Positions 3,305 to 37,462 of a DNA stretch of 64,000 nucleotides are shown piece after piece. The stretch is from Candidatus Kapaibacterium sp. (GTDB taxonomy: Bacteria; Patescibacteriota; Patescibacteriia; UBA9934): the NCBI GenBank assembly GCA_044350705.1, contig JBILHA010000002.1:306295-370294 (forward strand). Direction: 5' to 3'. Made by a program: the position numbers and the translations under genes. The notes under the pieces were generated by a model. It was not told the DNA's origin. It saw nothing but the letters and a program-made list of their open reading frames with translations, and did not search any database. The stretch's first letter is position 1; each line of letters begins with the position of its first letter.

Positions 3305-5107
3305 TTACTTCCATGTGCGTGATATTTCGACACCCGTATAGAAATATTTCAGAATTTCTTCCCAGGTACTTCCCTCTTTCGCCATACAGATCGCTCCTGA
3401 TGCGGACATTCCTACACCGTGGCCCCATAAACTCTTACCTTGATCACAGGGCACTGCAACGGACTTTGCATAGGGGACTTCTCTTCCCCATACTTCACTC
3501 CAGTTTCTCGTGCGACCATCGGAGCGTGAGAAATAGGAAGTAATTGCCGTTTGTCCTTCGTACGTCACGATCTGTCCGCGCGTCGCCTCGACACCTGCGG
3601 CAATGAGCGGATTGCGCTCTTCTTGACCATAGCCCCAGTACACCTGATCGCGATATGCGTCTACATGATAGCCTTCTGCTGCGTGTTTTGAAGGATTTGT
3701 ATAGTGAAAATATGCATACGTGCGCGCTGCGGTCATGAGTGCTTTTTGGAATTCTTCGGGGGAAGAGTTCGAAGTTTCCGCGAGACCTCGCAAATAATAT
3801 TCCATGGGCAGCTCATTAATGAGCCACGTGCGATCTTTTGTTGCGTTGTAGCGAAGTTCAAGAACGTTTCGGAAGGTGTTATTTGCGTACGACGTTCCTC
3901 GCGTTACTCGGCGATCGAAGTTTGTGACTTCCAGAACTGCATTCGCCGTCACCGGCACAAAGCGAAGCGGGAGCGTTGACGTCTTTTGTGTAGCTCCTGA
4001 TCCGTAGACATAAGTATCACCGCTATATGCTGCGCGTATATCGCTCCCCTTCGGGATGGTGAGGAGATGTTTTCCTGCGGTATCGCGAACTTCTACCTCG
4101 CTTGCGTGCGAACCAATACGCACTTCCCAATCTGTCTCTTCATCGACAATGAGCACTCCCACCCGCATCATGGGCTCTTCGAGCAGATTCTCTTGTACAT
4201 CCTCTTCTTCCTCTGACTCGTTGCTTGGATTTACCCACTCTCCCGTCCCCCCGGTCACTTCGATCGGAAGATTTACCTCTGCGCCTGCAATCTCCTGTTC
4301 ATTTGCTTTGAACGAGAAGACGAGCTTATGCACTCCGTTTACCTGGGGTGTTTGCATGAAAAATTGCACATTTGCCGTTTGGCCGGGAGCGATTGCTTGC
4401 TGCGCAAGTGCTGCTACGGTTTTCCCATTCCAGGAGCTGTGCGCAAATGACGCCTGCTGGTTTCCCGATGCATCATGCAGACTTATTGTATTCCACGTTG
4501 CAGTACCGGTATTTTTCAGGGCAACCATGAACGATATCGGCCTTCCCGCTTTTACTTTGAGGGCATTTGCCGTTTGGGCAACCATCGAGCCTTCATACGT
4601 CAAGGTGTCCGCAGGAGCTTCTTCCGAGGCTTCTTCTGCGCCACCTACGAGAAGATTGAAGGTGAACTGTCCTCCAGGGATCCAGGCAATGTCTTCTGCG
4701 GCAAGCGCAAATGTTTCTTTGTACGTTCCAGGAGTTTGCGGTGCATGCAGCTCAAAGGAAACCGTTCCCGTTCCCCCCGGTGCTACATTCGCTTCATTTA
4801 AGCGTCTCACTTGCGTAGGAGAGAGCCAGTTTCCTGGGTCAAAGCTACTCTTTCGATATTTTGGTTCGTAGGTATATACAGAAATATATCCGGGTCCATC
4901 GTTTTTCCAGGTTGATGCTCCGGTGTTTTGGAACGTCAGCGTCACTTGTCTGCGTTCGCCAGGAGCCATCGCGACCGTTCCACCCCCTGTTGTAGTGACC
5001 CGCAGCGCTGCATACGCCGCGGTTATTGCCTCGGCTGGACGCGGGAGCACGCCCGTAAGCGAGGAGAAAAGAAGACATAACCCTAAAACACATGCACGAA
5101 GACGCAT
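3305..5107 (-). CDS. secreted SpoIID/LytB-domain protein with N-terminal beta-rich repeats
   Basis: Signal peptide. C-terminal SpoIID/LytB amidase-enhancer-like region (..YHVDAYRDQVYWGYGQE..SDGRTRNWSEVWG..). Confidence 0.75.
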   Translation of the reverse strand: MRLRACVLGLCLLFSSLTGVLPRPAEAITAAYAALRVTTTGGGTVAMAPGERRQVTLTFQNTGASTWKNDGPGYISVYTYEPKYRKSSFDPGNWLSPTQVRRLNEANVAPGGTGTVSFELHAPQTPGTYKETFALAAEDIAWIPGGQFTFNLLVGGAEEASEEAPADTLTYEGSMVAQTANALKVKAGRPISFMVALKNTGTATWNTISLHDASGNQQASFAHSSWNGKTVAALAQQAIAPGQTANVQFFMQTPQVNGVHKLVFSFKANEQEIAGAEVNLPIEVTGGTGEWVNPSNESEEEEDVQENLLEEPMMRVGVLIVDEETDWEVRIGSHASEVEVRDTAGKHLLTIPKGSDIRAAYSGDTYVYGSGATQKTSTLPLRFVPVTANAVLEVTNFDRRVTRGTSYANNTFRNVLELRYNATKDRTWLINELPMEYYLRGLAETSNSSPEEFQKALMTAARTYAYFHYTNPSKHAAEGYHVDAYRDQVYWGYGQEERNPLIAAGVEATRGQIVTYEGQTAITSYFSRSDGRTRNWSEVWGREVPYAKSVAVPCDQGKSLWGHGVGMSASGAICMAKEGSTWEEILKYFYTGVEISRTWK

Positions 5108-5123
5108 ACGGTGCTAGTGTACC

Positions 5124-6620
5124 ATGTATACCAGGTCGGTTACACCTCTTTTTCCTCCCTTTTTGGGATTCTCTATGGCCTCTCTTGCCCGTAGTTCTCT
5201 TTTACAAATATCCGGGAAATTACTCGGTATTTTCTTTGGACTTGCCACCTTCTATCTTCTTCTTCACTTTTTTGGTACCGAGGGATACGGCGTTTTTACC
5301 ACTGCGCTTACCTACGTTACTTTCTTTTCTATTGTTGTTGATTTTGGCCTGACGATTACCACCGCTCAGATGATTGCGGAGAAAGGCGCAGATGAGCAAA
5401 AAATTCTTTCCAATCTCTTTGCCTTGCGTATTGTTAGCGCGCTTGCATTCATGATGCTCGCCCCCCTTTCTGCATGGTTTTTGCCCGGCACGGAGAAGGT
5501 ATTTCCCTTAATCTGCATTGGCTCTGCAACGTATTTTTTTGGCGCTATTGCCCAAATGTTCTTAGGGGTTTTCCAGAAGCGTCTTGAGCTTGCTACTCCG
5601 GTTATTGCTGAAATGCTCAGCCGTGCACTCTCTCTGGCGGGCATTCTCTTCGTTGGACTTACCACCCAGTCTCTTCTTCATGCGACGTTCGCCTTTACGC
5701 TTGGCGCTGCCGTTCAATTGGTCATCATGCTCTTTGCCACCCATCGCCGCATTCCCCTTCGGCTTTCCTGGGACTTTTCTGTATGGAAAAATATCCTTTC
5801 TCGCAGCTGGCCTATTGGGCTTTCTATTTTCTTCAACCTCCTTTATCTCAAAGGTGATGTGTTATTTCTTTGGGGGCTTGGAAAAAGTGACTGGGAGATT
5901 GGACAATATGGAGCGGCATACAAAGTCGTTGATATTCTCACCATGGTTCCCGTCACCTTCATGGGACTCGTTCTTCCTCTTCTTACCCTTGCGTGGACTT
6001 CACGGGATCATGGAGGATTTACTCGTCGCATGCAACAGACCATTGATCTTTTTGCCGTCATTTCCATTCCCTGTATTTTCGGAGCATGGGCACTGGGTGT
6101 TCCACTCATGACTGCGGTTAAGCCTGATCTCGCGCTCGCCGGACAGCTTCTTTGGGTTCTCGTTCCTGCCGCGGTTGTCGTTTTCTTTGGCTCGCTCTTT
6201 GGACATGCGGTGGTCGCTCTTCAGGCGCAGCGACCCATGACCTGGAATTATTGCATCGTCGCGGTACTCGGCGTTGCCGGATACCTTCTTCTCGTTCCTC
6301 CGTTTGGCGCCTGGGGCGCTGCTTGGGTAACGCTCTTTTGCGAGGCGGCAATTGCGCTTTTGGCCTACGTTGTTATTCGTAAACGCTGGAAGGCTTCACT
6401 CTCTTTTCTCATCCCACTCAAAGCCTTGGTTGCGAGCGTAGTCATGTTCTTTGCGCTTGAGCTCGTACAATACTTCTTTGCTCCTTTTTCTCCGGTGAGC
6501 TCTCTTCTTCTTTCGTTTGCAATCGGTGTTCTCGTCTATTTCCTCGCACTCTCGGCTGTTCAAGGCCCAACCCTTCGCGATGCAAAAAAATTACTTGCAG
6601 CAGATGCGCGTCAAAGCTAA
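5124..6620 (+). CDS. polysaccharide biosynthesis protein / oligosaccharide flippase (MOP superfamily, Wzx-like)
   Basis: Roughly 12-14 TM helices with Wzx/MurJ-like topology. Start is probably the internal Met near 5175. Confidence 0.7.
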   Translation: MYTRSVTPLFPPFLGFSMASLARSSLLQISGKLLGIFFGLATFYLLLHFFGTEGYGVFTTALTYVTFFSIVVDFGLTITTAQMIAEKGADEQKILSNLFALRIVSALAFMMLAPLSAWFLPGTEKVFPLICIGSATYFFGAIAQMFLGVFQKRLELATPVIAEMLSRALSLAGILFVGLTTQSLLHATFAFTLGAAVQLVIMLFATHRRIPLRLSWDFSVWKNILSRSWPIGLSIFFNLLYLKGDVLFLWGLGKSDWEIGQYGAAYKVVDILTMVPVTFMGLVLPLLTLAWTSRDHGGFTRRMQQTIDLFAVISIPCIFGAWALGVPLMTAVKPDLALAGQLLWVLVPAAVVVFFGSLFGHAVVALQAQRPMTWNYCIVAVLGVAGYLLLVPPFGAWGAAWVTLFCEAAIALLAYVVIRKRWKASLSFLIPLKALVASVVMFFALELVQYFFAPFSPVSSLLLSFAIGVLVYFLALSAVQGPTLRDAKKLLAADARQS

Positions 6621-6626
6621 TTTCGT

Positions 6627-7898
6627 ATGCTCTTCTCTTTTTTTCTCCTTCTTACGCTCGGACTTTTTACCTGGCTGAGCATCCGTCATTTTCATAGTGC
6701 CCTTCTCCTCTTTCTTGCTCTTTTTCCTACCTATCTCATCCGCTTCTCCCTTGGCCCTCTTCCTACCACCCTTCTTGAGCTGTGTTTTTTTGTTCTCTTT
6801 GGTGTTTGGGTTGTTCGTCGTTTGCGCGCGCATACCCTCTTTCTTCCTTCTCGGGGCATTCTTGTTTTCTTTTTTCTTCTCAGCATCCTTCCTTTGGCGG
6901 TGGTTCCCGGTGAACACCTCCTGTCCTCGCTTGGGCTTTGGCGGGCATATTTCCTCGAGCCATTCTTGCTCGGGTGGATCCTTTGGCATGAGTTGCAAGA
7001 TGAAACCATTCGTCTTCGAGCGTTTCTTGGCCTTTCGCTCTCTGGTTTTTTCCTCGCAGCGCTTGGTATTTTTCAATTCAGTACTGGGCTGGGCATTCCT
7101 GCTCCCTGGGATATTGAGCGAAGGATTACGAGTGTCTTTGATTACCCTAATGCCCTTGGACTTTTTCTCGCCCCTCTTTTAAGTGCACTTTTGGTATTCG
7201 GAATTTGCACCTGGAAGAATCGTCTTCCTCATGAAAAAACGTTTCTCGCTGGAGCGTGCACGGTCATGCTTCTTGCCATCATCTTGGCAAAAACTGAAGC
7301 TGCGCTTGTCGCCGTTCCTGCTGCGGTATTCATTTCGCTTTTCATTTCCCCCCTCATCTTACGCAAACATAAAATCATTGCCGGAGTTTTCGCTTCTCTT
7401 GCGCTTGTCGGTGCATTTGCTTTCCCCCACATTCGAGCCAAGCTTCTTCTTCAAGATTTCTCTGGAGGCGTACGACTCTCGCAGTGGAAAGAAACGATCG
7501 AGCTTCTCAAAGATCACCCGATTACTGGCGCAGGCATAGGATATTATCCCGAACTTCTCCGGACTTCTTATCATCACGATTGGCAGTATGAGATTTTCCA
7601 ATATCCCCACAATATTCTTCTCAACATCTGGGTTGAGTTGGGTATTTTAGGCGTGGTTCTTTTTCTTGTGGGCGCGTGCTATCTCGGAAGAAGCGTTTGG
7701 AAACAGCGTTCTTCTCCTCTTCCTCTTGCCGCAGGTGCTGCACTTCTTGCCATGGCTATTCATGGACTTGTTGATGTTCCTTTTTTTAAAAATGATTTAG
7801 CGATGATGACGGTGGTGTTTGTGATTTTTATCATGGGAGCAGCGGGGAGTAAGGATGGGAACATAGGGAGTATGCATGGAAGCACGGGGAGTAAGTAA
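6627..7898 (+). CDS. O-antigen ligase family (Wzy_C-like) membrane protein
   Basis: Polytopic membrane protein with a large periplasmic loop typical of the O-antigen ligase/WaaL family. Confidence 0.65.
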   Translation: MLFSFFLLLTLGLFTWLSIRHFHSALLLFLALFPTYLIRFSLGPLPTTLLELCFFVLFGVWVVRRLRAHTLFLPSRGILVFFFLLSILPLAVVPGEHLLSSLGLWRAYFLEPFLLGWILWHELQDETIRLRAFLGLSLSGFFLAALGIFQFSTGLGIPAPWDIERRITSVFDYPNALGLFLAPLLSALLVFGICTWKNRLPHEKTFLAGACTVMLLAIILAKTEAALVAVPAAVFISLFISPLILRKHKIIAGVFASLALVGAFAFPHIRAKLLLQDFSGGVRLSQWKETIELLKDHPITGAGIGYYPELLRTSYHHDWQYEIFQYPHNILLNIWVELGILGVVLFLVGACYLGRSVWKQRSSPLPLAAGAALLAMAIHGLVDVPFFKNDLAMMTVVFVIFIMGAAGSKDGNIGSMHGSTGSK

Positions 7899-8016
7899 AA
7901 TAGGCGATTTTTGTTTTTTACAGAGTTTTCCTTTCTTTTCTAAACGCAAAACGAGCGTCCGGGACGTGTCACACGCGATTGCGTGACACGCCCGAACGCT
8001 CGAGACGAAGGGGAGG

Positions 8017-8580
8017 CTAGCGGCACATCCCCACAAAGAGGGTGTTCGCGCCGCGGACCCGGAGGTCCACATCGCAGGTCGACTTTGCGACTTGCGTCGC
8101 CAGCGCTCCCTGCATGATGTGGTACGGGTCCCCCAGCACGATGGCCGGGAGGGTGGTGCCGGGGACGACCCCCGGACTCTCGATATCCAGGCCGGACATC
8201 GAGTACCTGGTCACCGTCACGCTCACGAGCGTTACGGCGCCGAAGTCCACCCATCCGCGCTCGCCGGGAGCGAGCACCGAGGCACACCGCGTGCCGGTCG
8301 GCCCAGCGACGTACACGCACTGCGTGACGCCACCTTCCGTAACGACGGCACGGGGTACGCCGCCGGAGCCGGCAGAGGTTCGATAGGAGAACCCCAGCTC
8401 GATGGCTGCGTCGGTGTTGTTGATGAACTGCACCACCGTGGGACCCGCCTTGGGGACACGCATCACCTGCGCTCCCAGCATCCCCGTGTTCGGGCTCACC
8501 GCCGGGTTGGCGGAAGCAGAGGAGATGGCGAGAACCAGGGCGGCGAGGAAGCTAAACATGGGAGGCTCCATGGGGCACAA
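8017..8580 (-). CDS. secreted hypothetical protein (high-GC island)
   Basis: Sec signal peptide MFSFLAALVLAISSASA, Cys-containing mature part, GC-rich codons. Confidence 0.6.
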   Translation of the reverse strand: MCPMEPPMFSFLAALVLAISSASANPAVSPNTGMLGAQVMRVPKAGPTVVQFINNTDAAIELGFSYRTSAGSGGVPRAVVTEGGVTQCVYVAGPTGTRCASVLAPGERGWVDFGAVTLVSVTVTRYSMSGLDIESPGVVPGTTLPAIVLGDPYHIMQGALATQVAKSTCDVDLRVRGANTLFVGMCR

Positions 8581-8733
8581 GGCCCGGTGAGGAAAGGACG
8601 TGCTCGGGACAGGATGTCATCGAGCGGTGTATGCACTCCTCATCGAGAAGGACATGCACTGCATGATGAGCTGATTCAGGGGAGCCAACAGTGCATTGCT
8701 GCGTGTTGGCTCCCCCACGGGAACGAGGGCCTT

Positions 8734-9333
8734 CTAGCGACCGGCGGCCGCGCGGGCTCGGGCCTCGGCGGCCGCGACCTCGGCGGGGGTGGGCCCGGGG
8801 GGCGGGGGGCGACGGGTCTGCGCGTGCGCGGGCGCGGGGGGCGGCGGGAGGAAACCCCCGCCGTTGACGGCCTGCAGAGCCGCCATGTCGGCGGCCGCCT
8901 GGCTGGGCCAGCCACCGAGCGGCACGCCGAGCGTGCCCTGCATCGCGGCGTAGGACGCCGCTTGGCCGGTCGCCACCTCCCCATCGGTGGATACGTAGGT
9001 GTCGCGGCCCTGGGCCGCGGCGGTGACGGCCACCGTCGCCCCCGCCTGGGCGAGGGTGAGGGCGGCCTGGGCCTGGGCCTGGGCCCGAACGCACTGCGCG
9101 CGGGCATCCGCCGCGGCGGCGAGCATCTCGCTCGCCGCCTCCGCGCTCAGGAACTGCGCACCGTTGGTGCGCAGGTTGGCACAGCCGTCCGGGCCCCAGC
9201 CCACGACGAGCGCGGGGTCCCGGGCGAAGAGCCCGGAACGGTTGCGAACGGGGGCCGGCTCCTCGGCGGAAGCCGGGGAGGAGGTGGCGACGAGGGCGGC
9301 GATCAGGGACAGCGAGAACAGGATGGAACGCAT
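8734..9333 (-). CDS. secreted Ala/Gln/Pro-rich hypothetical protein (high-GC island)
   Basis: Signal peptide MRSILFSLSLIAALVATSSPASA. Low-complexity AQAQAQ and PPPP tracts. Confidence 0.55.
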   Translation of the reverse strand: MRSILFSLSLIAALVATSSPASAEEPAPVRNRSGLFARDPALVVGWGPDGCANLRTNGAQFLSAEAASEMLAAAADARAQCVRAQAQAQAALTLAQAGATVAVTAAAQGRDTYVSTDGEVATGQAASYAAMQGTLGVPLGGWPSQAAADMAALQAVNGGGFLPPPPAPAHAQTRRPPPPGPTPAEVAAAEARARAAAGR

Positions 9334-9433
9334 GAGCGTTTCCCCTTTGCCTTTCGGCGGTGTGGCCCGAAGGCCGTTGTTTCAACGATCATTCGGTACA
9401 ATGCGTGGCTTTCCACGTCATTTCCGAACAGTT

Positions 9434-9463
9434 CAGTATAGCAAAAAAATGCAAAAAAATCAA
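9434..9463 (-). promoter_or_regulatory. sigma70-like promoter (TTGATT-17-TATACT) for the 8734-9333 gene
   Basis: Read on the minus strand; about 100 nt upstream of the start codon. Near-exact mirror image of the promoter at 9619-9646. Confidence 0.5.
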
Positions 9464-9618
9464 GCTAAGAGGCGAATGGGATTTCACATGGAAACTTGGG
9501 ATTTCTTAATAAAACCGCGGGTATTACGTCTCAGAACGGGGGTGGGGATAGGTGTGTGAATATCGGACTTGTCGAAATGACATTCTTAAAATTCTTCCCC
9601 TTCCTTCTCTTTCTCTCC

Positions 9619-9646
9619 ATTGATTTTTTTGCATTTTTTTGCTATG
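9619..9646 (+). promoter_or_regulatory. sigma70-like promoter (TTGATT-16-TATGAT) for the 9754-11844 gene
   Basis: About 100 nt upstream of the start. ttgattttttgcatttttttgct is the reverse complement of 9441-9463. Confidence 0.5.
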
Positions 9647-9753
9647 ATGCGCCGTTCCAGATCCATGCTTCCTGCATGAGAAATGGACGATCTCTCACAA
9701 TCCTCTTCATCACTTCACCCCCTGGTTCGCAGTGAACCAGATAGGAGAACCGT

Positions 9754-11844
9754 ATGGCTTTAGACCTCGCCGCGATCCTGTCTCTCCTCTTGGGGGAGCA
9801 GAAGCGCGAGAAGCGGAAGGCTGAGACGGGCAAGGGGGATGGGCAGGACGCTCTGCACGACGCGTTTATTGACGCGATTTTGCCGGAGTTGTCGAGTTAC
9901 TTCCTGACCCTCTTCGAGGAGAAGGATGCGCCGACGCTCCTGCGCTCGCTCAACGCGTTCATCCTTACGGTGTATCAGGCTTCGCCTGACGCCCTCCAGT
10001 TCCTCATCCGACTTATGGCAAATGTGTCGGTTGAGAAGTGGCAGGACCGCGCGAAGCGCAGGAATATCCCCGCCTGGGCGCTCACTGCTCCCATGGTCTT
10101 CATCAAGGCCTACTTCGGCGCCCTGGAAGACATGGCGTCGAAAAACAAGGCGCAGGGCAAGCAGACCACCCCTGAGGACATCAAGGCCGCTCTCAACAAT
10201 TTCGCCAAGAAGGCGAAGCAGACGGGGAGTGACCTCAACACGAAGCTCGGCGCGGCCCAGAAAGCTGCGCGGGACTTCGCTTCCAGTCACAAGACCACCA
10301 CGGAGGGCCCGGACATGGGCAACCCCCACGCCAACCCCAAGCCGCCGCCCTCCGCGGGCGGCGCCGGTGGGGGTTCGCCCCCGCCGCCCAACAACCCCAA
10401 GCCCGCGCAGAAGGACGGGGACGACAAGAAGGGCTCGATCGGCGAGCTCGTGGACACAGTGAAGGACGTCTTCACCGCCCTCAGCGCCATCGTGGCGTGG
10501 TGGGGCGATAGGGGCGAGGACCACATCCAGGAGGGGGCTCGCGCCCTCTTCTGGGTGCCCGTCGCCCTCCTCGTGACGGCGGCGTTCACCTTCGTCGCGG
10601 CCATCTCTCCCCGAGATGAGCCGATGATGGTGGTGACGGCGGCGGCGGCGATCTTCTGGACCCTGGGCCCCTTCGCGGCATACTGGATCTGGCGGCGCAA
10701 CGCCAGCCTCGAGGCCGAAAAGAACGAGGAAAACCCGGCCGAGCGCCCCGGCAACGGGGTGATCGAGCTCGGCATGCTCGCCGTCACCGGCGGCTTTGTT
10801 GGGAGCATCTCGATGCTCACCATCACCGCCGTCTGCGTGGTCGGCTCCTTCTCGAGCGGGTTCCATCCGCTCTACTACTGGATCAGCATGATCGCCATGG
10901 CAGCGGTTTTTGTCACCTGCATGGCGACCGACATGCTCACGGACTCCCTTAAAAGCATCGGGGGCTTGGCGATCCCTCGCCTGCGCAGCGAAACGCTGCC
11001 CAATCGGGTGACGAGGAGCTTCTCGCTCTTCGGACTGGTTTTTGGCCTGGCTATGGCCGTTCCGGTTCTGGCGTACACCTTCGGTCTCACGGACTATGTG
11101 GGATCGAAGGTCGCTCTTGGACTATTCCTCGGAATCGTCGCAGGCTTTCTCAACACCCGGGTCGCCAACGCTCCCAATCACCCCCCCTTCACTCCTCTCC
11201 TGGAGCAGTTCAACCGGAACGTGCTTCGGGACTACAAAACGTCCCGGAGCATCCTCTTCGCGGGGATCATCCCCATCGTCTTCTTCACGCTCTTCGATCT
11301 CTTCGCGCCGCCGCGGTGCCCCACCGATCCGGAGCTCGCTCCCAGCGAGTGCCCGGTCGAGCTCCCGACCTACGCGGAGCGGTGGCATGACTCGGACATC
11401 CGGGAAATCGGTGGCCGCGCTTACCACGCGGTCGTCGGCCTCTTTCTGGATGACGAGGAGGGAGATGAGGACGACTCCTCGACGGCCCTGATGACGGTGG
11501 TTCCCGCGGACAACGACACCTGCTCCGCGCGGGTGGAAGTGTTCGTCGCGGGCATCGCCACGGATGACTGCAAAGTCATCCTGAAGGCAGGGACGGACGC
11601 CGACCTGATCGCCTTGTGCGACCAGGCTCGGGACTGCGGGGCGCTCGCGCCCAACGGCCGCAAGGTCGTGCAGGTCGTCCGGGAGAAGAAGGAGTGGACG
11701 GTGGCCGATGTGGACGACTGGGGAGTTGGTGAGGTGGTGCTGGCGGGCTTCGCGCTCGTCGGTGTCCTCTTCCTCGTCATCCTCATCCTTGCCGCGCTAG
11801 GAGGCGGTGAGGAGAAGAAGGACGGCCACAGCAAGGGCCACTAG
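9754..11844 (+). CDS. large polytopic membrane protein with an N-terminal cytoplasmic domain, a Pro/Gly-rich linker and a Cys-rich C-terminal region; unknown function (high-GC island)
   Basis: 696 aa, about 10 predicted TM helices, PPPSAGGAGGGSPPPP linker, conserved Cys pairs near the C-terminus, final TM anchor. Confidence 0.6.
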   Translation: MALDLAAILSLLLGEQKREKRKAETGKGDGQDALHDAFIDAILPELSSYFLTLFEEKDAPTLLRSLNAFILTVYQASPDALQFLIRLMANVSVEKWQDRAKRRNIPAWALTAPMVFIKAYFGALEDMASKNKAQGKQTTPEDIKAALNNFAKKAKQTGSDLNTKLGAAQKAARDFASSHKTTTEGPDMGNPHANPKPPPSAGGAGGGSPPPPNNPKPAQKDGDDKKGSIGELVDTVKDVFTALSAIVAWWGDRGEDHIQEGARALFWVPVALLVTAAFTFVAAISPRDEPMMVVTAAAAIFWTLGPFAAYWIWRRNASLEAEKNEENPAERPGNGVIELGMLAVTGGFVGSISMLTITAVCVVGSFSSGFHPLYYWISMIAMAAVFVTCMATDMLTDSLKSIGGLAIPRLRSETLPNRVTRSFSLFGLVFGLAMAVPVLAYTFGLTDYVGSKVALGLFLGIVAGFLNTRVANAPNHPPFTPLLEQFNRNVLRDYKTSRSILFAGIIPIVFFTLFDLFAPPRCPTDPELAPSECPVELPTYAERWHDSDIREIGGRAYHAVVGLFLDDEEGDEDDSSTALMTVVPADNDTCSARVEVFVAGIATDDCKVILKAGTDADLIALCDQARDCGALAPNGRKVVQVVREKKEWTVADVDDWGVGEVVLAGFALVGVLFLVILILAALGGGEEKKDGHSKGH

Positions 11845-11953
11845 GAGGAGAGCAACCGCGTACAGTGGCGCGGGAAGGAACGGAAAAGCACACGGTACGT
11901 CGCAAGACGGACCTCTCGTGCTCGACCGGACCTTCCCGCGCCTTTTCGTTTCA

Positions 11954-11988
11954 ATAAAAAAACGCCCCGTGAGGGGCATTCTTTTTTT
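11954..11988. terminator. bidirectional rho-independent terminator
   Basis: aaaaaaacgccccgtgaggggcattcttttttt between convergent genes. Confidence 0.75.
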
Positions 11989-12370
11989 AGGTTACTGCGG
12001 TTTGTACTTGCGTGATAACGAAGTTGGAAATCGCGTATGCAGAGAGCAAGATCACGAGACCTACGACTGCCGTGATGAGAATATCCTTTGCCTTTCCGGT
12101 CTGCTTGCTGTCTCCCGCTGCGGTCATCCAGAGCCAACCTGCGTAGAGCGTAAGGAACAAGAAGACGATACCGAGCAAACTCAATCCGATGTTAATGAGC
12201 GTACCGATTGTGGTTGTAAGATCGTTATCACTTAAACCCGTTGCGCTTCCTACTTCACCGAGTGAAGCATCCAAATCAAGATCGTTGCCAGTGGCAAGTG
12301 CTGGCACTGCGCTTGCAAAAGGTGCTGCAGCGATTGCTGCTCCTGCCAAAAAGTGTTTCCAGTTTTTCAT
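11987..12370 (-). CDS. VirB2/TrbC-like (T4SS pilin-like) small membrane protein, paralog 1
   Basis: Signal peptide (start taken at MKNWKHF), then TM-loop-TM with the motif LYAGWLWMTAAGDSKQTGKAKD. Confidence 0.7.
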   Translation of the reverse strand: MKNWKHFLAGAAIAAAPFASAVPALATGNDLDLDASLGEVGSATGLSDNDLTTTIGTLINIGLSLLGIVFLFLTLYAGWLWMTAAGDSKQTGKAKDILITAVVGLVILLSAYAISNFVITQVQTAVT

Positions 12371-12434
12371 AGGATATTTTATGGATATATTGTAGCATGT
12401 TTTTTCTCTTTCTCTAGTTACTGTGGATAGGGCT

Positions 12435-13139
12435 TTAGCTTCCCCCGATAATTGAGTCGCTATAATCCCATCCTCCCGCGGCTCGTTCTCCTGAAAGCCG
12501 TCCAATAATGAATGAGGAAATACTGTAGGCGAGGAGCGTAAGAATGAGCCCAATGAGCGCATTCTTCATGATGGACTTTGCTTTGTCTACTTGCTTTCCG
12601 TCTCCTTGTGCGGTCATCCAGAGAATGCCGGCGTAGATAAAGAGTACCAGCAGGACAACACCGAGAAGATTGAGCACGATACTGATCATTGTTCCAATAT
12701 TATCGAGCAAGTCCGTACTTGTTACTCCTGTTGATTCGAATGTCTGTTGCGCATTCTCACTCAATAGGACATCTGCACCGGGAGCTTGTGCGATAAAGAA
12801 GAATACTATTGCATTTGCAGAGAGGGTGATGATGAGACCCACCACGGCATTTGCCATCACATCTTTCGCTTTCTTCACCTGCTTTTCGTCGCCTTGTGCG
12901 GTCATCCAAAGGAATCCTGCGTATACAAAGTAGATGAGGAGAAGAACGCTTAATAAACCTAACGCGAGGTTGATGAACAATCCTATGAGCGTGGGCAAAC
13001 TTCCCTCCGAACCTGTTACATTAATTTCCGCCCCTTGGCCTGCAGTCTGTAGTTCCGTTTGTCCTAGATCTATTGCCAATGCCCCTACAGGAAAGCATAG
13101 AGACATGGCTACGATGGCCATCCATTTTAAAATACGCAT
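12435..13139 (-). CDS. tandem double-domain VirB2/TrbC-like pilin protein, paralogs 2a and 2b fused
   Basis: Two complete TM-loop-TM modules, VYAGFLWMTAQGDEKQVKKAKD and IYAGILWMTAQGDGKQVDKAKS, in a single ORF. Confidence 0.65.
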   Translation of the reverse strand: MRILKWMAIVAMSLCFPVGALAIDLGQTELQTAGQGAEINVTGSEGSLPTLIGLFINLALGLLSVLLLIYFVYAGFLWMTAQGDEKQVKKAKDVMANAVVGLIITLSANAIVFFFIAQAPGADVLLSENAQQTFESTGVTSTDLLDNIGTMISIVLNLLGVVLLVLFIYAGILWMTAQGDGKQVDKAKSIMKNALIGLILTLLAYSISSFIIGRLSGERAAGGWDYSDSIIGGS

Positions 13140-13149
13140 ATCTCTTCTT

Positions 13150-13575
13150 CTAGCCTCCTCCCGCCGTCGTCGTTGAGAGCGAAGTTACAACGAAGTTTGC
13201 TATTGCGTATGCACCCACGAGAATAACCGTTCCCACTACACACTGCGTAAGAATATCTTTTGCTTTCTGCACTTTCTTTGAGTCGCCTTGTGCGGTCACC
13301 CAGAGAAAACCTGCATAGGTCATGAGCGCAAAGAGAAGGGTACCTGTAAGCCCAAGTGCCGGTCGAATGACATAGGTTCCCACAAATTGTGGCAGCGTCA
13401 TGGTTATGGAGGTACTTGCTAATCCATACCCTTCTTTTGCCGTAGTTCCCAATCCAGTATCACTCGAACCTAATTGCGCAAATGCCGCAGTGGGGAGCAA
13501 GAAACTTAGAACAACAAATAATTTCAGAAGAATATTTTTCATACAAAAGGTTCCAAGTTCAAACGCTCCCCGCAC
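13150..13575 (-). CDS. VirB2/TrbC-like pilin-like protein, paralog 3
   Basis: Signal peptide, motif TYAGFLWVTAQGDSKKVQKAKD. Start may be the internal Met at about 13542. Confidence 0.7.
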   Translation of the reverse strand: MRGAFELGTFCMKNILLKLFVVLSFLLPTAAFAQLGSSDTGLGTTAKEGYGLASTSITMTLPQFVGTYVIRPALGLTGTLLFALMTYAGFLWVTAQGDSKKVQKAKDILTQCVVGTVILVGAYAIANFVVTSLSTTTAGGG

Positions 13576-13578
13576 GCA

Positions 13579-13974
13579 TTACGCTGTTGCGTCGAGAATT
13601 GAGGAGATGACGAAGCTTGCAATTGCGTATGCGGACATGATGATCGCCAGACCAATCAGACCAGAAATCATAAGGCGCTTTGCTTCGCCCACCTTTTCGT
13701 CGTTTCCACCTGCGGTCATCCACTTAAATCCACCGTAGAGCACAATACATACGGCGATAACACCCAAGAAACCAAGCGCAACACGAATCAGGTTACCGAT
13801 GGTGGTCTGCAGATCTGCCTGACCAAGTCCTGTTGCATCTGAAAAATCATCTCCCAAGAAATCCTCCGCTTCGAGAGGCTGTGCGTATGCGATCGGAATT
13901 ATTCTCGCGAAAGGAAGTGCAAGAAATACTCCCAGTGCCGCACTCATAAGGAAACGCAATGTTTTGTTCATCAT
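13579..13974 (-). CDS. VirB2/TrbC-like pilin-like protein, paralog 4
   Basis: Signal peptide, motif LYGGFKWMTAGGNDEKVGEAKR. Confidence 0.7.
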   Translation of the reverse strand: MMNKTLRFLMSAALGVFLALPFARIIPIAYAQPLEAEDFLGDDFSDATGLGQADLQTTIGNLIRVALGFLGVIAVCIVLYGGFKWMTAGGNDEKVGEAKRLMISGLIGLAIIMSAYAIASFVISSILDATA

Positions 13975-14009
13975 AGATATTTCTCAATATGGGAAAAGTA
14001 TAACATCTT

Positions 14010-14357
14010 TTATGCACCCGTTGCGCTTCCTGTGGTAAACGCATTTACGATCGCATTTACTATTACGTATGCTCCCGCAATAACTCCCAATCCCAGCACC
14101 GCCCAGACCATGATATCTTTTCCGCGCTGCACTTTTTTCTGTTCACCGTTTGCGGTAATCCAGAGTACACCTGCGTATACAAACATGAGAAGCGTAATCG
14201 TTCCGATAACGGAAAGAAGTCCCGAGATGATACGTCCCGCTAAAATACGAGGATCCGTTTCGCCGAGGGGATTGATGAGATGTACCGTCTGTGCAGAAAC
14301 GAGGTGCGGCGCAAGGATAAGTAGACCGCAGATAAGCGTAAGAACATGCCGTTTCAT
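14010..14357 (-). CDS. VirB2/TrbC-like pilin-like protein, paralog 5
   Basis: Start taken at MKRHVLTLICGLLILAPHLVSA. Motif VYAGVLWITANGEQKKVQRGKD. Confidence 0.65.
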   Translation of the reverse strand: MKRHVLTLICGLLILAPHLVSAQTVHLINPLGETDPRILAGRIISGLLSVIGTITLLMFVYAGVLWITANGEQKKVQRGKDIMVWAVLGLGVIAGAYVIVNAIVNAFTTGSATGA

Positions 14358-14358
14358 A

Positions 14359-14916
14359 CTATTGGTTATTTGTGTCAATGACCTGTCCTGTGGGGATTTC
14401 GTATCTTCTTCCGTCTTCAGTCGCAGGGAGGTCTTGGATGGTTTCTTCAACCGTTGCTTGAGGATCAATTCCTCCGAGGATTGAAATGAGGAAATTGATC
14501 ATCGCGTATGCACCAAATATAATCGCCAGACCGATAATTGCGTGCTTCATGGTGTCTTTTCCGATTTGAATGTACTCAGGACGACCTTGCGCAAACACCC
14601 AATTCCACCCTCCGTAGATAAACATGAGCAGCGCTACCGTTCCAGAGATTCCGAGAATAAGAATGATGATGTTTACCGCGATTTGTACCAGTTCAGCGAG
14701 ACTACAAATTCCTTGTGCTCGACACTGACACGTGTCTCCTTCGCCACTTTCAGGAGCTGGATCTTCACAAATATTTGCGAAGATAATTCCCTGTTGCATG
14801 ATGTTCGTGTACCCCTGTGCAGCCGTTACATCTTGTGGCGCTGCGAATGCGAAGCTTGGCGCAATACACATGAATGCTCCAATACATGCTGCGAGGATAC
14901 GAGCGAAGAAACGCAT
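14359..14916 (-). CDS. VirB2/TrbC-like pilin-like protein, paralog 6, with a Cys-rich N-terminal insert
   Basis: Signal peptide, CEDPAPESGEGDTCQCRAQGIC insert, motif IYGGWNWVFAQGRPEYIQIGKD. Confidence 0.65.
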   Translation of the reverse strand: MRFFARILAACIGAFMCIAPSFAFAAPQDVTAAQGYTNIMQQGIIFANICEDPAPESGEGDTCQCRAQGICSLAELVQIAVNIIILILGISGTVALLMFIYGGWNWVFAQGRPEYIQIGKDTMKHAIIGLAIIFGAYAMINFLISILGGIDPQATVEETIQDLPATEDGRRYEIPTGQVIDTNNQ

Positions 14917-14941: not shown

Positions 14942-16345
14942 TTATTTATAGGTTTGAGAAACTACTTTTGCTGCGTCATTGATAGAGTCTTCCGCCTTTC
15001 TGTTTGCTGCCAGTACTTCGGTTGCCAGCTCTTCAAATGCCGCTTCCATCGCTTTCGCGTCAAGGCCCTTGTACCAGCTTTCCGCCGTCAGGATCTGCTC
15101 TACAAATGCACTCAGATTTTCTCTTTCAATCTGCTCGTCAATTAGTTCACGTAATGCGGTTGGTCTTCCTGTTTCGTCGAGGTATTTTATCGCCTGCTCT
15201 GCACTCGTCGCAAATGCCACAAAGTCCCATGCTTCATCAGGAAATTCCGTATCTTTTGATACGGTTTCTATCCAATAATTTGCAAAATTCACCTTCTTTG
15301 CCCCTCCGCCGATCTGCGGGAGTGGCGAGACACCAATATCGATCGTGGGAGCTGCTGCCTGAATGATCGGCAAATGATAGCTGTACCCCAACATCATTGC
15401 CGTTTGTCCTGACGCAAATGCATCGACATTCGCTGGGAATTCCTCGGTCCAGGTGTACGTTTCCTTTACGGGATTTGCGAAGTCCGTAAAGAAACGTACC
15501 GCATCCAATCCAGGAAATACTCCGCTTCCTGCGTCGTCGGGGATGGTATTAAAGGCAATACGTCCGCGATCATCTACCATCGGCGTTCCGTTCTGGAGCA
15601 TAAGCGCCTGCACAATATCTGCCGCGCGATCAATATTTTCTACGGTTCCCAAAGAGGCTCCTGACTGGCGAATCGATCCGTCGTCCGCATACTGCGTGAG
15701 CGCCACGACGGCATCTTGAAATTCCACCCATGTCTCTGGAGCTTTTGCGAGTCCTGCCGCATCAAACAAATCTTTGTTGTAGAATAACGCCAATGTATCC
15801 ACTGAGAGCGGCAGACCAAATACCCGATCTTCCTCTGGAGCATCTTCGTCGGGTTGATACGGCAAAATAGCATCGTGGGCAACGACGTCTACGAAATCCT
15901 CTTTGATTGATCGCTGCGAAGGGAGTGCCACCTGTTTTGAGGTGAGAACCGTTTCTTTTCTCACCGTTCCTACGGTTTCAAGGTATTTCACCGTTACCGA
16001 TGTCGGCATGGGCAAAAGAAGATCTTTATACTCATTCATTTGGGTATTGTGTACCGTAAAAATGTCCGGACCTTCGCCTTTTGCAAGCGCAGTGATGAGT
16101 TCTTTTTCGTATTCATCAAATCGCAACACGCGGTAATCGATGACTACGTAGGGATGCTGCGCTTGATATGCGCTAATAATGTCGTCAAAGGCATCATCTC
16201 CATCAAATACGCGCCAATACGTGAGTCGTACTTTTTCTGCGGCTTGCTTTGTTTCACCGCCGCCTCCACACCCTGCTCCAAGCGTAAATAATAACGATGC
16301 GGTCAGCATCGCAGGAAGAAATCTACGGAGTTTCGGGAATTTCAT
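14942..16345 (-). CDS. ABC transporter substrate-binding lipoprotein (family 1, sugar-type); orphan, no cognate permease in the window
   Basis: Lipobox LGAGCGG. Extracellular solute-binding protein fold along the full length. Confidence 0.75.
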   Translation of the reverse strand: MKFPKLRRFLPAMLTASLLFTLGAGCGGGGETKQAAEKVRLTYWRVFDGDDAFDDIISAYQAQHPYVVIDYRVLRFDEYEKELITALAKGEGPDIFTVHNTQMNEYKDLLLPMPTSVTVKYLETVGTVRKETVLTSKQVALPSQRSIKEDFVDVVAHDAILPYQPDEDAPEEDRVFGLPLSVDTLALFYNKDLFDAAGLAKAPETWVEFQDAVVALTQYADDGSIRQSGASLGTVENIDRAADIVQALMLQNGTPMVDDRGRIAFNTIPDDAGSGVFPGLDAVRFFTDFANPVKETYTWTEEFPANVDAFASGQTAMMLGYSYHLPIIQAAAPTIDIGVSPLPQIGGGAKKVNFANYWIETVSKDTEFPDEAWDFVAFATSAEQAIKYLDETGRPTALRELIDEQIERENLSAFVEQILTAESWYKGLDAKAMEAAFEELATEVLAANRKAEDSINDAAKVVSQTYK

Positions 16346-16886
16346 AGATGTACATCATGCGGCCACGGAGATTTTTCGGCAGATGTGTTTGCTCGATAAC
16401 CTCCTTTGGCTTCCAAAAAGTGATGGGAAAATCGACGGCAACGATGCGGGTACCCGGCTTACATTCTTGCTCGAGCTTTTTCGCGACTTTGTCTACGAAT
16501 CCGGGCAAAAGATAGAGTACTATCCGATCTGCGTCCTGATATTTTTGTTTCAACGCGTCCGCATGGACATAGGAAATATGCTTTTCCTTGCCACAGAGGC
16601 GTGCGAGGATGATGGGATACCATGCTCGATCAATCCCCTTGTAGTGAGCTCGTGGCTCTTGTGCTGCACACGCGCGCAAAATACGGCCATCTCCGCACCC
16701 AATATCATACACTACAAGATCTGCCTTTATAGCGAGTGCCTTTACTACTCCCGAAAGCACTTCATGCGGGAGTGGTACATACGGCGCGCGCCATGAGCCA
16801 AGTACGCTCATAGCCCACAGGAATACCCCTCCGTTTATGAGTACGAAAAACAAGAGTGCAGTTCCTAAAATAAGGTATTCGAGCAT
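16323..16886 (-). CDS. class I SAM-dependent methyltransferase with an N-terminal TM helix
   Basis: Motif I VYDIGCGDGRIL and an acidic motif II. Confidence 0.7.
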   Translation of the reverse strand: MLEYLILGTALLFFVLINGGVFLWAMSVLGSWRAPYVPLPHEVLSGVVKALAIKADLVVYDIGCGDGRILRACAAQEPRAHYKGIDRAWYPIILARLCGKEKHISYVHADALKQKYQDADRIVLYLLPGFVDKVAKKLEQECKPGTRIVAVDFPITFWKPKEVIEQTHLPKNLRGRMMYIYEIPETP

Positions 16887-16929: not shown

Positions 16930-17799
16930 TCACTTCAAACTCTCTAAATAGCCCTTTAATCCTTCTTTTACTTCTGGGTGCTGCAAGCCAAGTTCAATTT
17001 GTGCGAGAATGAACTGGAGCTTGTTTCCACAGTCATAGCGCTTTCCGCTGAACTTTCTTCCAAAAAGCTTTCCCCCTTCACTCAAATGCGTCGCGAACGC
17101 ATCGGCAAGCCGGATTTCTCCATCCTTTCCCGGTTCCTGTGTTTCAAGGAGACGGAGGATTCGAGGAGTAATAACGTACCGCCCTACTGCGGCGTAGTTT
17201 GAAGGTGCTTCTTCTACTTTTGGCTTTTCTACAAATTGTGAAATCGCCCAAACGTCATGAGAAAGCGCCTCTCCATCAATAACGCCATAGCTTGAAACAT
17301 GTGCACGCGGAACTTCTTGCACGGCTACTACGGACTCTCCTCCCTGTGCATGGAATGTTTCAATGAGTTCTCCAATTGCCGGCTTTTCTCCCGAAATGAT
17401 GTCATCTCCAAAAAGCACCGCTACAGACTCGTCATCGCCAATAAAAGGCGCTGCCGCAAGAAGCGCATGTCCATCTCCCAACGGCTTCTGTTGGCGCACA
17501 AAGGCAAATTTTGCCAACTTCCCCACCTCTTCAATTACCGCTAACTCCTTCAGCTTTTTCTTTTGCTCAAGGCGATATTCAAGCTCGAAGTTCCGATCAA
17601 AGTGATCCTCAATGGCTCGCTTCCCAATCGCCGTCACGAAAATCACCTCCTCAATTCCCGCAGCAACCGCCTCTTCGACGATGTATTGAATCACCGGCTT
17701 ATCAACGACCGGGAGCATTTCTTTTGGCTGTGCTTTTGTTGCCGGGAGGAATCGCGTTCCCATGCCTGCAACAGGAATGATTGCTTTGCGAATTTGCAT
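16930..17799 (-). CDS. galU: UTP--glucose-1-phosphate uridylyltransferase
   Basis: AIIPVAGMGTRFLPATKAQPKEMLPVVDKP signature, alignable over the full length. Confidence 0.9.
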   Translation of the reverse strand: MQIRKAIIPVAGMGTRFLPATKAQPKEMLPVVDKPVIQYIVEEAVAAGIEEVIFVTAIGKRAIEDHFDRNFELEYRLEQKKKLKELAVIEEVGKLAKFAFVRQQKPLGDGHALLAAAPFIGDDESVAVLFGDDIISGEKPAIGELIETFHAQGGESVVAVQEVPRAHVSSYGVIDGEALSHDVWAISQFVEKPKVEEAPSNYAAVGRYVITPRILRLLETQEPGKDGEIRLADAFATHLSEGGKLFGRKFSGKRYDCGNKLQFILAQIELGLQHPEVKEGLKGYLESLK

Positions 17800-35999: not shown

Positions 36000-37133
36000 T
36001 TATTGCCTGATCGGCATGACGATATAGAGATAATCTGTTTTTTCCTGCCCATGCGGAAGAATAATGCATGGATTCATCGCATCAATCATCTTCATGTGCA
36101 CCTTTTCCGTTTGGAGAGCCTGCGCTCCATCGAGTAAGTAGCGGAAGTTGAGCGTGATACTGTTTGCGTTTCCCATCACTTCTGCCTCGATCGTTACTTC
36201 ATTCTCTCCTCTTCCAATGTCATTTGCAAAGAGTCTGAGCAACTTTTCTTCTGGCCTCACCTCAAAACGCACATCAAAGAGACCATTTTTTGAGAAAAGT
36301 GCGGTTCGCTTTACTGCCTGGATGAGCGCATTTCTCTCCAAAATAAGTTCTGTTGTGAATGTTTTGGGGATAATTTGCCGGTAATCAGGATACACGCCAT
36401 CAATGGTACGCGAAGAAAGTTCTACCGATCCGCAACGGAATGCGATCTGATTATCGGTAAGCTCGATATCGATATTTTCTGCGGCTTCAACGCTTGAACG
36501 AAGCACGCTCAAAATGCGCCGAAGTTCTGCGAGCGTTCGCGCGGGGATCACCACCTTCCGCTCACCCAGAGTTTCACTTACGAGTGGTACGCTCTTTTCT
36601 CCCAAGCGGTAACTATCCGTTGCGGCAACCGTCACGGTTTTTGTATCGCCGTTGAAGTACAAGAACGCTCCAGTGAGAATTTGTCGCGCTTCGCTTGTTG
36701 AGACGGCAAAGAGCGTTTGCCCAAGAGCCGCATCAAATGATTGTGCTTGCACGGTATAAGTTATTCCTCCGCTTACTTTTGGAATTGCAGGGAATTCTGA
36801 GGCCGCAAGACCGTGCATTTTTGTTTTAGAACTTCCGCAATGTACCGCTACAGAGGTATCCAAGAGATCTAGATCAATACGCTCATCAGGAAGAAGACCT
36901 ACATAATCCGCGAGGAGCTTTGCAGGAAGCGTGTATCCACCAGGTTGATCTACCTTTGCACGAATCATGCAGGATACGGTGAGATCTAGGTTTGTAGATG
37001 TTAAACGCACACCTCCCACATCTGCTTGTAAGAGGATGTTGTTAAGAATGGGAAGATTAGCACTCTTTCCACTTATATGGCTTGCTATGGAGAGTCCTTG
37101 ATGAAGGTTGTCTTTGGTACAAGAGAATTTCAC
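36000..37133 (-). CDS. dnaN: DNA polymerase III beta sliding clamp
   Basis: Three-domain clamp, N-terminal MKFSCTKDNL...LQA, immediately downstream of dnaA. Confidence 0.9.
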   Translation of the reverse strand: MKFSCTKDNLHQGLSIASHISGKSANLPILNNILLQADVGGVRLTSTNLDLTVSCMIRAKVDQPGGYTLPAKLLADYVGLLPDERIDLDLLDTSVAVHCGSSKTKMHGLAASEFPAIPKVSGGITYTVQAQSFDAALGQTLFAVSTSEARQILTGAFLYFNGDTKTVTVAATDSYRLGEKSVPLVSETLGERKVVIPARTLAELRRILSVLRSSVEAAENIDIELTDNQIAFRCGSVELSSRTIDGVYPDYRQIIPKTFTTELILERNALIQAVKRTALFSKNGLFDVRFEVRPEEKLLRLFANDIGRGENEVTIEAEVMGNANSITLNFRYLLDGAQALQTEKVHMKMIDAMNPCIILPHGQEKTDYLYIVMPIRQ

Positions 37134-37462
37134 AGGAGAGAAGACAAGGATGATGGCTACAGGTTACTGATTTTTTAATAAAGTACAAAGGTGATAATCG
37201 TAAGCCTGTGGATGGCGGGGATAACTGTGGATGAACCGGCAAATATTGGGGATTTCTTTTGGGGGTATGTGGATGAATTGGTGAGGAGTTGTGAGATGAA
37301 CTGGGGATAGAATATGTTCCCTCCTTCGGTTTTCTTTCTATCCTCATTCTATCCGCCTTTCATACACAGAGCTGTTCCCATGTTATCCCTAGGTTTATCC
37401 TCACTTTGTGCACACGAACAATCGCCGAACGTTTTCCACACAGGTGGATAATATGTGGATAA
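37134..37462. promoter_or_regulatory. dnaA-dnaN intergenic region with clustered DnaA boxes and an AT-rich stretch (candidate oriC / DUE)
   Basis: Perfect TGTGGATAA at 37454-37462, GGTGGATAA at 37444-37452, and TGTGGATGA-type boxes near 37210, 37225 and 37265. AT-rich tract at 37170-37200. Confidence 0.6.

Follow-up and report, generated by a model that had tools for sequence, protein, structure and literature searches.

We report a tandem array of six pilin-like genes from a Patescibacterium of the class ABY1. The array occupies the minus strand between positions 11987 and 14916 of a 64,000-nucleotide stretch of contig JBILHA010000002.1 (hereafter the window, which corresponds to positions 125,331–189,330 of a 462-kb Joint Genome Institute (JGI) metagenome contig). 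The list of open reading frames (ORFs) of the window yields six co-oriented genes with seven pilin-like modules. We interpret them as a chromosomal operon for six Sec-exported hairpin proteins of the T4SS_pilin family, i.e., VirB2-like proteins, that would be polymerised via a type IV secretion system (T4SS) encoded elsewhere in the genome, the paralogs having distinct roles; we estimate the probability of this reading at about 0.6. An earlier note on this DNA had already described the six genes and seven modules, and the ORFs, the Pfam matches and the module alignment agree with that description. Its assignment of the genes to the T4SS pilins passed the Pfam check as well, the similarity to TrbC/VirB2 being weak.

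All six genes (denoted g1 to g6, g6 being the first and g1 the last gene of the array) match the Pfam family PF18895 (T4SS_pilin) with E-values from 5e-18 to 2e-5. The gathering score of this model, applied as a whole-protein hidden Markov model (HMM), is 26.6 bits, and it is exceeded by five of the six genes (33.2 bits for g1, 65.3 bits over two domains for g2, 38.6 for g4, 30.2 for g5, and 36.7 for g6). The remaining gene, g3, falls just under it (24.8 bits), and was also picked up by a local HMM of the family and through its positional orthologs. The architecture of PF18895, a signal peptide followed by a two-helix transmembrane (TM) hairpin with a short basic loop, is evident from the hydropathy profiles, the AlphaFold2 (AF2) helices and the alignment, in accordance with the topology initially proposed. 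Hydropathy profiles contain a hydrophobic N-terminal signal and two TM-like segments per gene (four in g2), and the AF2 model of g4 is a hairpin of helices 52–86 and 92–130 (predicted local distance difference test score, pLDDT, 76.8). In the alignment of the seven modules, Y, G, W, A, G, K, G, and A positions are invariant, and the modules are 29–45% identical to g1; in the nucleotide sequence, the loop motif recurs as a 68-nt repeat family in six modules. Close homologs carry the name “pilin” in NCBI. No holin or phage families were matched by the array proteins in Pfam or PHROGs, so that the unrelated fold of this kind, which the earlier note had allowed for, was not found. Nor are these type IV pilins of the PilA kind: the array proteins have no prepilin-peptidase site G|F(M)xxxE and no N_methyl match, and contain two TM helices, not one. 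Their signal peptides are of the signal peptidase I type (AxA).

Gene starts were set at the first start codon yielding a signal peptide, and the JGI gene calls concur; each gene of the array has its own start codon and signal peptide, and the gaps between genes are 1–64 nt. The first and longest gene, g6 (14359–14916; 185 aa), features a four-Cys motif, GIIFANIC..C.CR..G.C, before TM1 and a variable C-terminal tail. The motif, recognized already in the initial reading, is predicted to be extracytoplasmic and is kept in g6 orthologs. It is followed by g5 (14010–14357; 115 aa), which has a short conserved mature N-terminus and the best sub-threshold match to TrbC/VirB2, by g4 (13579–13974; 131 aa), the most conserved paralog, and by g3 (13150–13542; 130 aa), the position that varies most in the strain comparison described below. 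The last gene, g1 (11987–12370; 127 aa), encodes a signal peptide, a Gly/Asp/Thr-rich N-terminus, TM1, the loop YAGWLWMTAAGDSKQTGKAK, and TM2, and has orthologs at the last array position.

The g2 gene (12435–13139; 234 aa) contains two modules. Module a (12777–13139; residues 1–121) comprises the signal peptide and the first hairpin, and module b (12435–12776; residues about 122–234) a second complete hairpin with helices 141–176 and 181–215; the start of module b aligns with the mature N-terminus of the other modules, and a linker of about 30 residues, predicted to be extracellular, joins the two. The AF2 model of g2 is of low confidence (pLDDT 55.7) and was used for secondary structure only, with no fold search run on it; this secondary structure comprises two hairpins. 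Thus, the earlier description of a fusion of two complete modules holds, whereas the degenerate second signal that was part of it does not: module b has no signal-like region at all. Such a head-to-tail fusion requires no second signal, because the N- and C-termini are outside and the K-rich loop is inside.

A bidirectional intrinsic terminator (11956–11987), composed of an A-tract, the hairpin GCCCCGTGAGGGGC and a T-tract, is located between the g1 stop codon and a convergent gene for a 696-aa protein, and marks the 3' end of the array transcription unit. Judging from the short gaps, the terminator and the conserved order of upstream genes, the array is packed like an operon. The same array is present in two further JGI samples, and an identical g2 protein occurs in three JGI samples.

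To characterize the array in relatives, species-representative genomes were scanned with g4, resulting in 80 loci; neighbourhood counts were made over 82 loci. Every retrieved locus contains a co-oriented tandem array of 5–12 pilin-domain ORFs, typically six in Uhrbacteria and 8–12 in Magasanikbacteria. The order g6-g5-g4-g3-(g2/g1-like)-g1 recurs in six-gene arrays, and the head g6-g5-(g5)-g4 is retained even in larger arrays, while genes of the g3, g2, and g1 types expand and contract. In 29 six-gene, species-level arrays, the hairpin core of g4 is on average 81% identical, and the paralog-specific mature N-termini have 36–63% identity within ortholog groups vs. 21% between paralogs. The array is an ordered series of old paralogs, each with orthologs at the corresponding position in dozens of species, and not the free-floating variable repertoire envisaged at the outset; the paralogs look specialised, not redundant. 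The two-module g2 is represented by 22 homolog clusters (48–100% identical, with both modules intact), and more distant relatives have a single-module gene at this position; the two-module form is fixed in a subclade. Many of the species-representative records bearing this Patescibacteria-type locus (MAG TPA_asm, where MAG stands for metagenome-assembled genome; L008, L010–L014, and others) are titled “uncultured Gammaproteobacteria bacterium”, labels that look wrong.

Directly upstream of the array, a gene on the same strand (14942–16345) encodes a substrate-binding protein (SBP), a lipoprotein of the carbohydrate-type SBP_bac_1 family with the lipobox LGAGC; it has no equivalog. Further upstream are a gene for a small methyltransferase resembling protein-lysine methyltransferases (16323–16886, minus strand) and galU (UTP-glucose-1-phosphate uridylyltransferase; 16930–17799, minus strand), which is the first gene of the conserved order and is preceded by a weak promoter-like site (17839–17811). 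The succession galU, SBP lipoprotein, array on one strand was observed in 74 of the 82 loci, the exceptions being truncated contigs, with the SBP stop codon 0–140 bp from the first pilin gene; the same order occurs in two more distant arrays, retrieved independently through g2 homologs. The SBP gene, considered earlier to be an orphan that follows the array, in fact lies upstream in the direction of transcription and is a conserved operon partner. The methyltransferase gene is restricted to the closest relatives, galU directly abutting the SBP gene in most other loci, and probably lies outside the core module. The operon contains no ABC permease and no ATPase that would serve the SBP. Other neighbours of the array move among loci, including a block of Wzy, Wzx, and SpoIID genes whose side and distance relative to the array vary.

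The locus is chromosomal and has housekeeping surroundings. Among the genes of the window are those for RuvB, SpoIID, a Wzx/MurJ-like protein, Wzy_C, GalU, PGI, a cysteine desulfurase-like protein, an ABC exporter, PBP1, DnaN, DnaA, trigger factor, ComM, PNPase, and PolA, as well as six tRNAs, and the composition matches that of the host genome. Based on DnaA-box clusters at 37226–37462 and 38901–38968, adjacent to dnaN (36000–37133, minus strand) and dnaA (37463–38917, minus strand), and on the minimum of the cumulative GC skew between 36000 and 39000, oriC is about 22 kb from the array. Homologs of the array proteins come from Patescibacteria, mostly from Candidatus Uhrbacteria, and the organism is an Uhrbacteria-like member of ABY1, the class to which both Uhrbacteria and Magasanikbacteria belong in Table S1 of Quinonero-Coronel et al. 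(2025; PMC12102498); this fits the small-genome bacterium anticipated earlier.

Strain-level variation was assessed by comparison of the window with contig L094 of a near-identical strain from another sample, i.e., with a single pair of metagenome assemblies, either of which may be a strain chimera. The flanking genes of L094 are 91–97% (about 96%) identical to those of the window at the nucleotide level. The segment with the methyltransferase and SBP genes (14942–16886 in the window, 7087–9031 in L094) has about 100% nucleotide identity over 1.9 kb, which could be due to recent recombination or a sweep, or to a strain chimera. Within the array, nucleotide identity is 96–99% for g4, 70–96% for g5, 48–70% for g3, and 47–70% for g2, and falls to 58% in the tail of g6; at the protein level, g3 is 66–69% identical to its L094 counterpart, compared to about 100% for the SBP. 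Moreover, g3 of the window is as close to g3 of genomes with an SBP just 78–80% identical (68–74%) as it is to that of L094 (69%). Most differences are located in signal peptides, mature N-termini, and C-terminal tails, and in g3 also in the loop; those of g5 are in the signal peptide and TM2, and the TM helices of g6 and g3 are kept. The rate of synonymous substitutions, dS, ranges from 0.006 in the SBP gene to 2.8 in g3. The ratio of nonsynonymous to synonymous rates, dN/dS, which the earlier note had proposed to compute across paralogs, is 0.03–0.22 in this strain comparison; selection on all genes is purifying, and nothing points to positive selection. Tandem and homopolymer repeats are absent from the array, as are invertible and flanking inverted repeats and promoterless cassettes, and the longest exact repeat between paralogs is 16 nt. 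These patterns suggest that g3, g2, g5, and the tail of g6 were replaced by divergent alleles through recombination and not through phase variation; classical phase or cassette variation is unsupported, as the array contains no slippery, invertible or long identical repeats.

The following mechanism is proposed. Each product would enter the membrane through Sec and lose its signal peptide, so that both termini are outside and the K-rich loop faces the cytoplasm. A monoderm-type T4SS encoded elsewhere in the genome (VirB4 with its partners) might then extract the pooled hairpins from the membrane and polymerise them into a filament or conduit associated with the T4SS, as suggested by the family assignment and by analogy with the genetics of Southlakia (see below). 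The paralogs would not be interchangeable: the conserved g4 may be the structural subunit; g6, the first and longest gene, with the Cys motif, is a candidate for a specialised initiator, tip or adaptor subunit; g5 has its own conserved N-terminus; and the g3-, g2-, and g1-type genes may form an expandable tail of the array, with exposed ends exchanged between strains by recombination. The g2 protein would represent two subunits covalently joined into a dimer, an arrangement compatible with the topology. The SBP lipoprotein might be co-expressed and probably act at the same site of the cell surface, speculatively in ligand capture or in the sensing of host contact.

Five of the six genes match TrbC/VirB2 (PF04956) below the threshold, the match of g5 covering the full length of the model. 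Aligned by hhalign to five annotated VirB2/TrbC proteins, the family has TM1, the loop and TM2 in register over 58 columns (E-value 2.5e-4, probability 42.8%), both sides being hydrophobic hairpins, a composition that may have raised the score. The nearest curated NCBIfam model, NF045849 (Mbov_0395 pilin-like conjugal transfer protein from a mycoplasma integrative and conjugative element, ICE), matches the hairpin of g1–g5. Its cut-off of 40 bits is not reached by g1 (38.5), g4 (34.9), g3 (21.1), or g5 (21.2), and g2 (51.0) passes it solely by the sum of two domains; g6 has no match. Regarding the T4SS itself, one located elsewhere in the genome is plausible: Table S1 of PMC12102498 lists VirB4 as present in six of eight relatives that carry an array, yet in none of these was a VirB4 gene found near the array.

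A number of observations weigh against this interpretation. None of the genes reaches the PF04956 gathering score of 27.9 bits, the best being g5 with 25.1 bits (E-value 2.1e-5) and the others scoring 13.6–17.7 bits, and the hhalign probability for VirB2/TrbC is only 43%. A Foldseek search of PDB with the g4 model resulted in nothing at E ≤ 1e-3, only generic helical hairpins and neither VirB2 nor TraA, and the family HMM retrieved from PDB sequences spurious matches only (the “Pizza” designer proteins), again with no VirB2 or TraA. Both searches are uninformative because the predicted fold is a generic helical hairpin, and hence structure does not settle VirB2 homology. No Pfam match to VirB4, VirD4, VirB6, VirB11, or a relaxase was found in the ORFs of the window together with 9 kb of the right and 8.7 kb of the left flank (about 82 kb), and no T4SS gene, a VirB4/VirD4-type ATPase included, was found in the available 10 kb around about 82 related arrays. 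VirB4 is listed as absent in two of the eight array-bearing relatives and in about half of the Uhrbacteria rows examined in Table S1 of PMC12102498; these are draft MAGs, in which absences may be gaps. Finally, the roles of g4, g6, and the other subunits are derived from conservation only, and to our knowledge a pilus has never been observed for this family. On balance, the genes clearly belong in PF18895 and in the published patescibacterial pilin arrays, and we do not file them in PF04956.

The search for secretion genes was extended by phmmer with Agrobacterium Ti VirB1 and VirB3–11, which was negative in the ORFs of the window and of about 90 loci, although a VirB4 from Patescibacteria was not available to serve as a positive control. 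Large P-loop ORFs were therefore listed as well, and those of the window and the loci are all FtsK or ABC exporters. Thus, the earlier conclusion that the 64 kb contain no VirB4, VirD4, VirB6, or relaxase and that the array is not part of a conjugative element was upheld and now extends to the flanks, where no complete T4SS immediately outside the window came to light.

The main rival explanation is an envelope complex that functions with the SBP independently of any T4SS, as a membrane or surface assembly for capture or import of host-derived carbohydrate or as an adhesion patch, with the VirB2 likeness reflecting distant ancestry only. We regard it as unlikely. In its favour are the adjacency of the SBP gene and the array, the sole strictly conserved feature of a neighbourhood in which the other genes move, the missing VirB4/VirD4-type ATPase near any array, the VirB4 absences in Table S1 of PMC12102498 (two of eight array-bearing MAGs and many Uhrbacteria), and the unspecific match to solved pilin structures. 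Against it, the “No” entries for VirB4 may be assembly gaps in draft MAGs, and the operon offers no ABC permease or ATPase for the SBP. We know of no transporter precedent for two-TM hairpins with a short loop. PF18895 was defined and named through T4SS contexts and belongs to an essential T4SS cluster in Saccharimonadia. A far less probable, largely refuted, explanation is that the array is a remnant or cargo of a conjugative element (an ICE or a plasmid), or a set of unrelated small membrane proteins such as holins or bacteriocin-immunity proteins. The nearest NCBIfam model does describe a mycoplasma ICE protein, and the fold is generic; against this, the array resides in the core chromosome about 22 kb from dnaA, dnaN, and oriC, with no relaxase, coupling protein, or adjacent integrase in the window, its composition is that of the host genome, its synteny is conserved across the whole class, and Pfam and PHROGs yielded no holin or phage matches.

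The array could also underlie phase or antigenic variation of a surface filament, as the earlier note had suggested, its paralogs being functionally redundant alternatives that diversify fast to evade or to match hosts or phages; the same hypothesis is raised in PMC12102498. What speaks for it is that g3, g2, g5, and the g6 tail diverge from L094 (47–88% nucleotide identity) against an SBP at about 100% and a background of about 96%, that g3 of the window has higher identity to its counterpart in a more distant genome (74%) than to the one in the nearest relative (69%), that strain changes fall mostly in predicted exposed ends, and that the array tail grows to 8–12 genes in Magasanikbacteria. 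Allele replacement between strains at some positions is thus real. Yet the order of the genes and the identity of the paralogs persist in dozens of species, N-termini are far more similar within ortholog groups (36–63%) than between paralogs (21%), g4 is nearly invariant, and dN/dS of 0.03–0.22 implies no positive selection. There are also no homopolymer, tandem or invertible repeats, no exact repeats above 16 nt shared by paralogs, and no cassettes lacking a promoter; each gene is equipped with a start codon and a signal peptide of its own, and the mosaic comes from one pair of metagenome assemblies with possible strain chimeras. We consider this explanation weak and improbable. Equally doubtful, in our judgement, is a bolder possibility in which the ABY1 array has become uncoupled from the T4SS, forming an SBP-linked filament or conduit of fixed multi-paralog make-up, fused double subunit included, with no local ATPase and perhaps no VirB4, which would serve host contact or carbohydrate uptake and have its exposed ends swapped by recombination. 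Polymerisation of VirB2-like hairpins via a distant T4SS remains our preferred interpretation.

Directly 3' of the array and convergent to it is a 4-kb stretch (8000–11850) with a GC content of 0.64, compared to 0.48 for the window. It contains the gene of the 696-aa protein (9754–11844, plus strand), which has a soluble N-terminal region of about 260 aa, about eight TM segments, a Cys-containing domain and a C-terminal anchor, and genes of two small secreted proteins on the minus strand (8734–9333 and 8017–8580). A similar GC-rich trio occupies the same place in at least 10 related loci with just 20–30% identity. An exhaustive search of 1.84 billion proteins yielded 11 representatives of the 696-aa family and no Pfam match. 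A link between this trio and the pilin array is possible. The suggestion that the 696-aa protein is VirB6/TrbL-like is unsupported, with no Pfam or NCBIfam match, none in 12 positional homologs, a word-indexed search that retrieved the protein itself and nothing else, and a negative phmmer search with Ti VirB6, although a very distant relationship may exist. An overlapping ORF (8092–9441, plus strand; 449 aa), Gly/Arg-rich, with no TM segment and no family match, is antisense to the two signal-peptide genes and probably spurious; the JGI annotations of two samples disagree on gene calls in this area.

The SpoIID, Wzx/MurJ-like and Wzy_C block (3305–7898 in the window) lies 0–8 kb from the array in about 24 loci, switches sides, and is probably a cell-envelope module. 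Glycosylation of the pilins by the nearby Wzx and Wzy_C was considered and dropped: by NCBIfam, these proteins resemble MurJ/SpoVB and O-antigen-ligase-like proteins, they adjoin SpoIID, and they occur within 10 kb of just about 24 of the 82 arrays, so that a role in the cell wall is more likely. In one distant relative, a gene of the ComEC competence channel is located directly 3' of the pilin array (L096, 11438–12973), and in another, the galU-SBP-array unit is preceded, at a distance of a few genes, by a gene of the type IV pilin-like (N_methyl) kind (L097, 637–1257). Elsewhere in the window, a second cluster of six DnaA-box-like sites (0–1 mismatch) in 270 bp was found at 63416–63685, downstream of a tRNA-Arg gene; the whole window contains 24 such sites vs. 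10.6 expected by chance. Just beyond its right end (L007, 1–9300) are very large genes for proteins of 1397, 860, and 785 aa with no confident family and with faint matches to Peptidase_G2, CarboxypepD_reg, and TPR; these are possibly surface proteins.

T4SSs of monoderm bacteria normally function without a pilus, and the interest of the locus stems from the role of an essential T4SS and an unusual series of pilins in Patescibacteria, a question that it narrows without answering. It provides four constraints: in the class ABY1, the pilin genes constitute a stable ordered operon with a carbohydrate-type binding lipoprotein, distant from any secretion ATPase; the paralogs look specialised and not redundant; a natural covalent dimer of subunits is tolerated; and the differences between strains cluster in those ends of particular subunits that are predicted to be exposed. 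Such constraints are useful for structural modelling and for genetics in cultivable relatives. The finding itself is ordinary, since the protein family, arrays of this type and the idea of variation have already been published (PMC12102498; PMC10633639; PMC12857230). The additions made here are modest, namely, the class-wide galU-SBP-array operon, the fixed order of paralogs, the fused double pilin, and the strain-level mosaic.

The locus is a further example of the published patescibacterial arrays of VirB2-like pilins. A survey based on PF18895 and PF04956 (Quinonero-Coronel et al., 2025, Microb Genom; PMC12102498) reports 441 arrays of 2–11 genes in 383 Patescibacteria assemblies, with a mean within-array identity of 25% and a maximum of 54%, places pilin genes near virB4 in 1135 of 1948 assemblies, remarks that T4SS genes are often near dnaA, and proposes antigenic variation or host-range versatility. 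In Ca. Southlakia epibionticum (SEML1), an essential series of predicted pilins lies inside a T4SS cluster (Wang et al., 2023, Cell; PMC10633639), and a review (2025; PMC12857230) counts six such pilins in Southlakia and speculates on a pilus-like conduit. By the survey's definition of an array (2–11 genes in tandem or one gene apart), the six adjacent PF18895-matching genes of the window qualify. The likeness extends to the phylum, the family, tandem co-orientation (six genes here and six in Southlakia), the missing relaxase, the low identity of paralogs (29–45% to g1), and the chromosomal location, about 22 kb from oriC, which fits the remark on dnaA. The differences concern the surroundings: the Southlakia genes are embedded in a VirB4/VirB6/VirB3 cluster, an arrangement not seen here, where about 82 kb contain no T4SS cluster; our array belongs to ABY1, whereas the survey stresses Microgenomatia and Saccharimonadia; and, unlike the published arrays as described there, it is preceded by the conserved galU-SBP pair and includes a two-module fusion gene, a combination that a full-text search did not find in the literature as indexed.

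The VirB2/TrbC pilins of diderm T4SSs polymerise into an extracellular pilus with bound lipid, and some of them are cyclised. The array proteins resemble these pilins (PF04956, e.g., A. tumefaciens VirB2 and RP4 TrbC) in small size, a cleavable signal peptide, two hydrophobic helices, a short basic loop and weak in-register profile similarity, and differ from them in scoring under the Pfam cut-off, in having no adjacent virB3 or virB4, no specific match to a solved structure, a monoderm host, and many paralogs as opposed to one major pilin. With the Mbov_0395 family (NF045849) they share the hairpin of g1–g5, although the context here is not an ICE. Tandem divergent copies of VirB2 with suggested strain variation occur in Bartonella and Anaplasma (cited in PMC12102498), and this arrangement is like that of the array described here. 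In these diderm animal pathogens, however, the copies are situated within or beside complete virB operons, whereas in the ABY1 array the order and identity of paralogs are old and conserved and selection is purifying.

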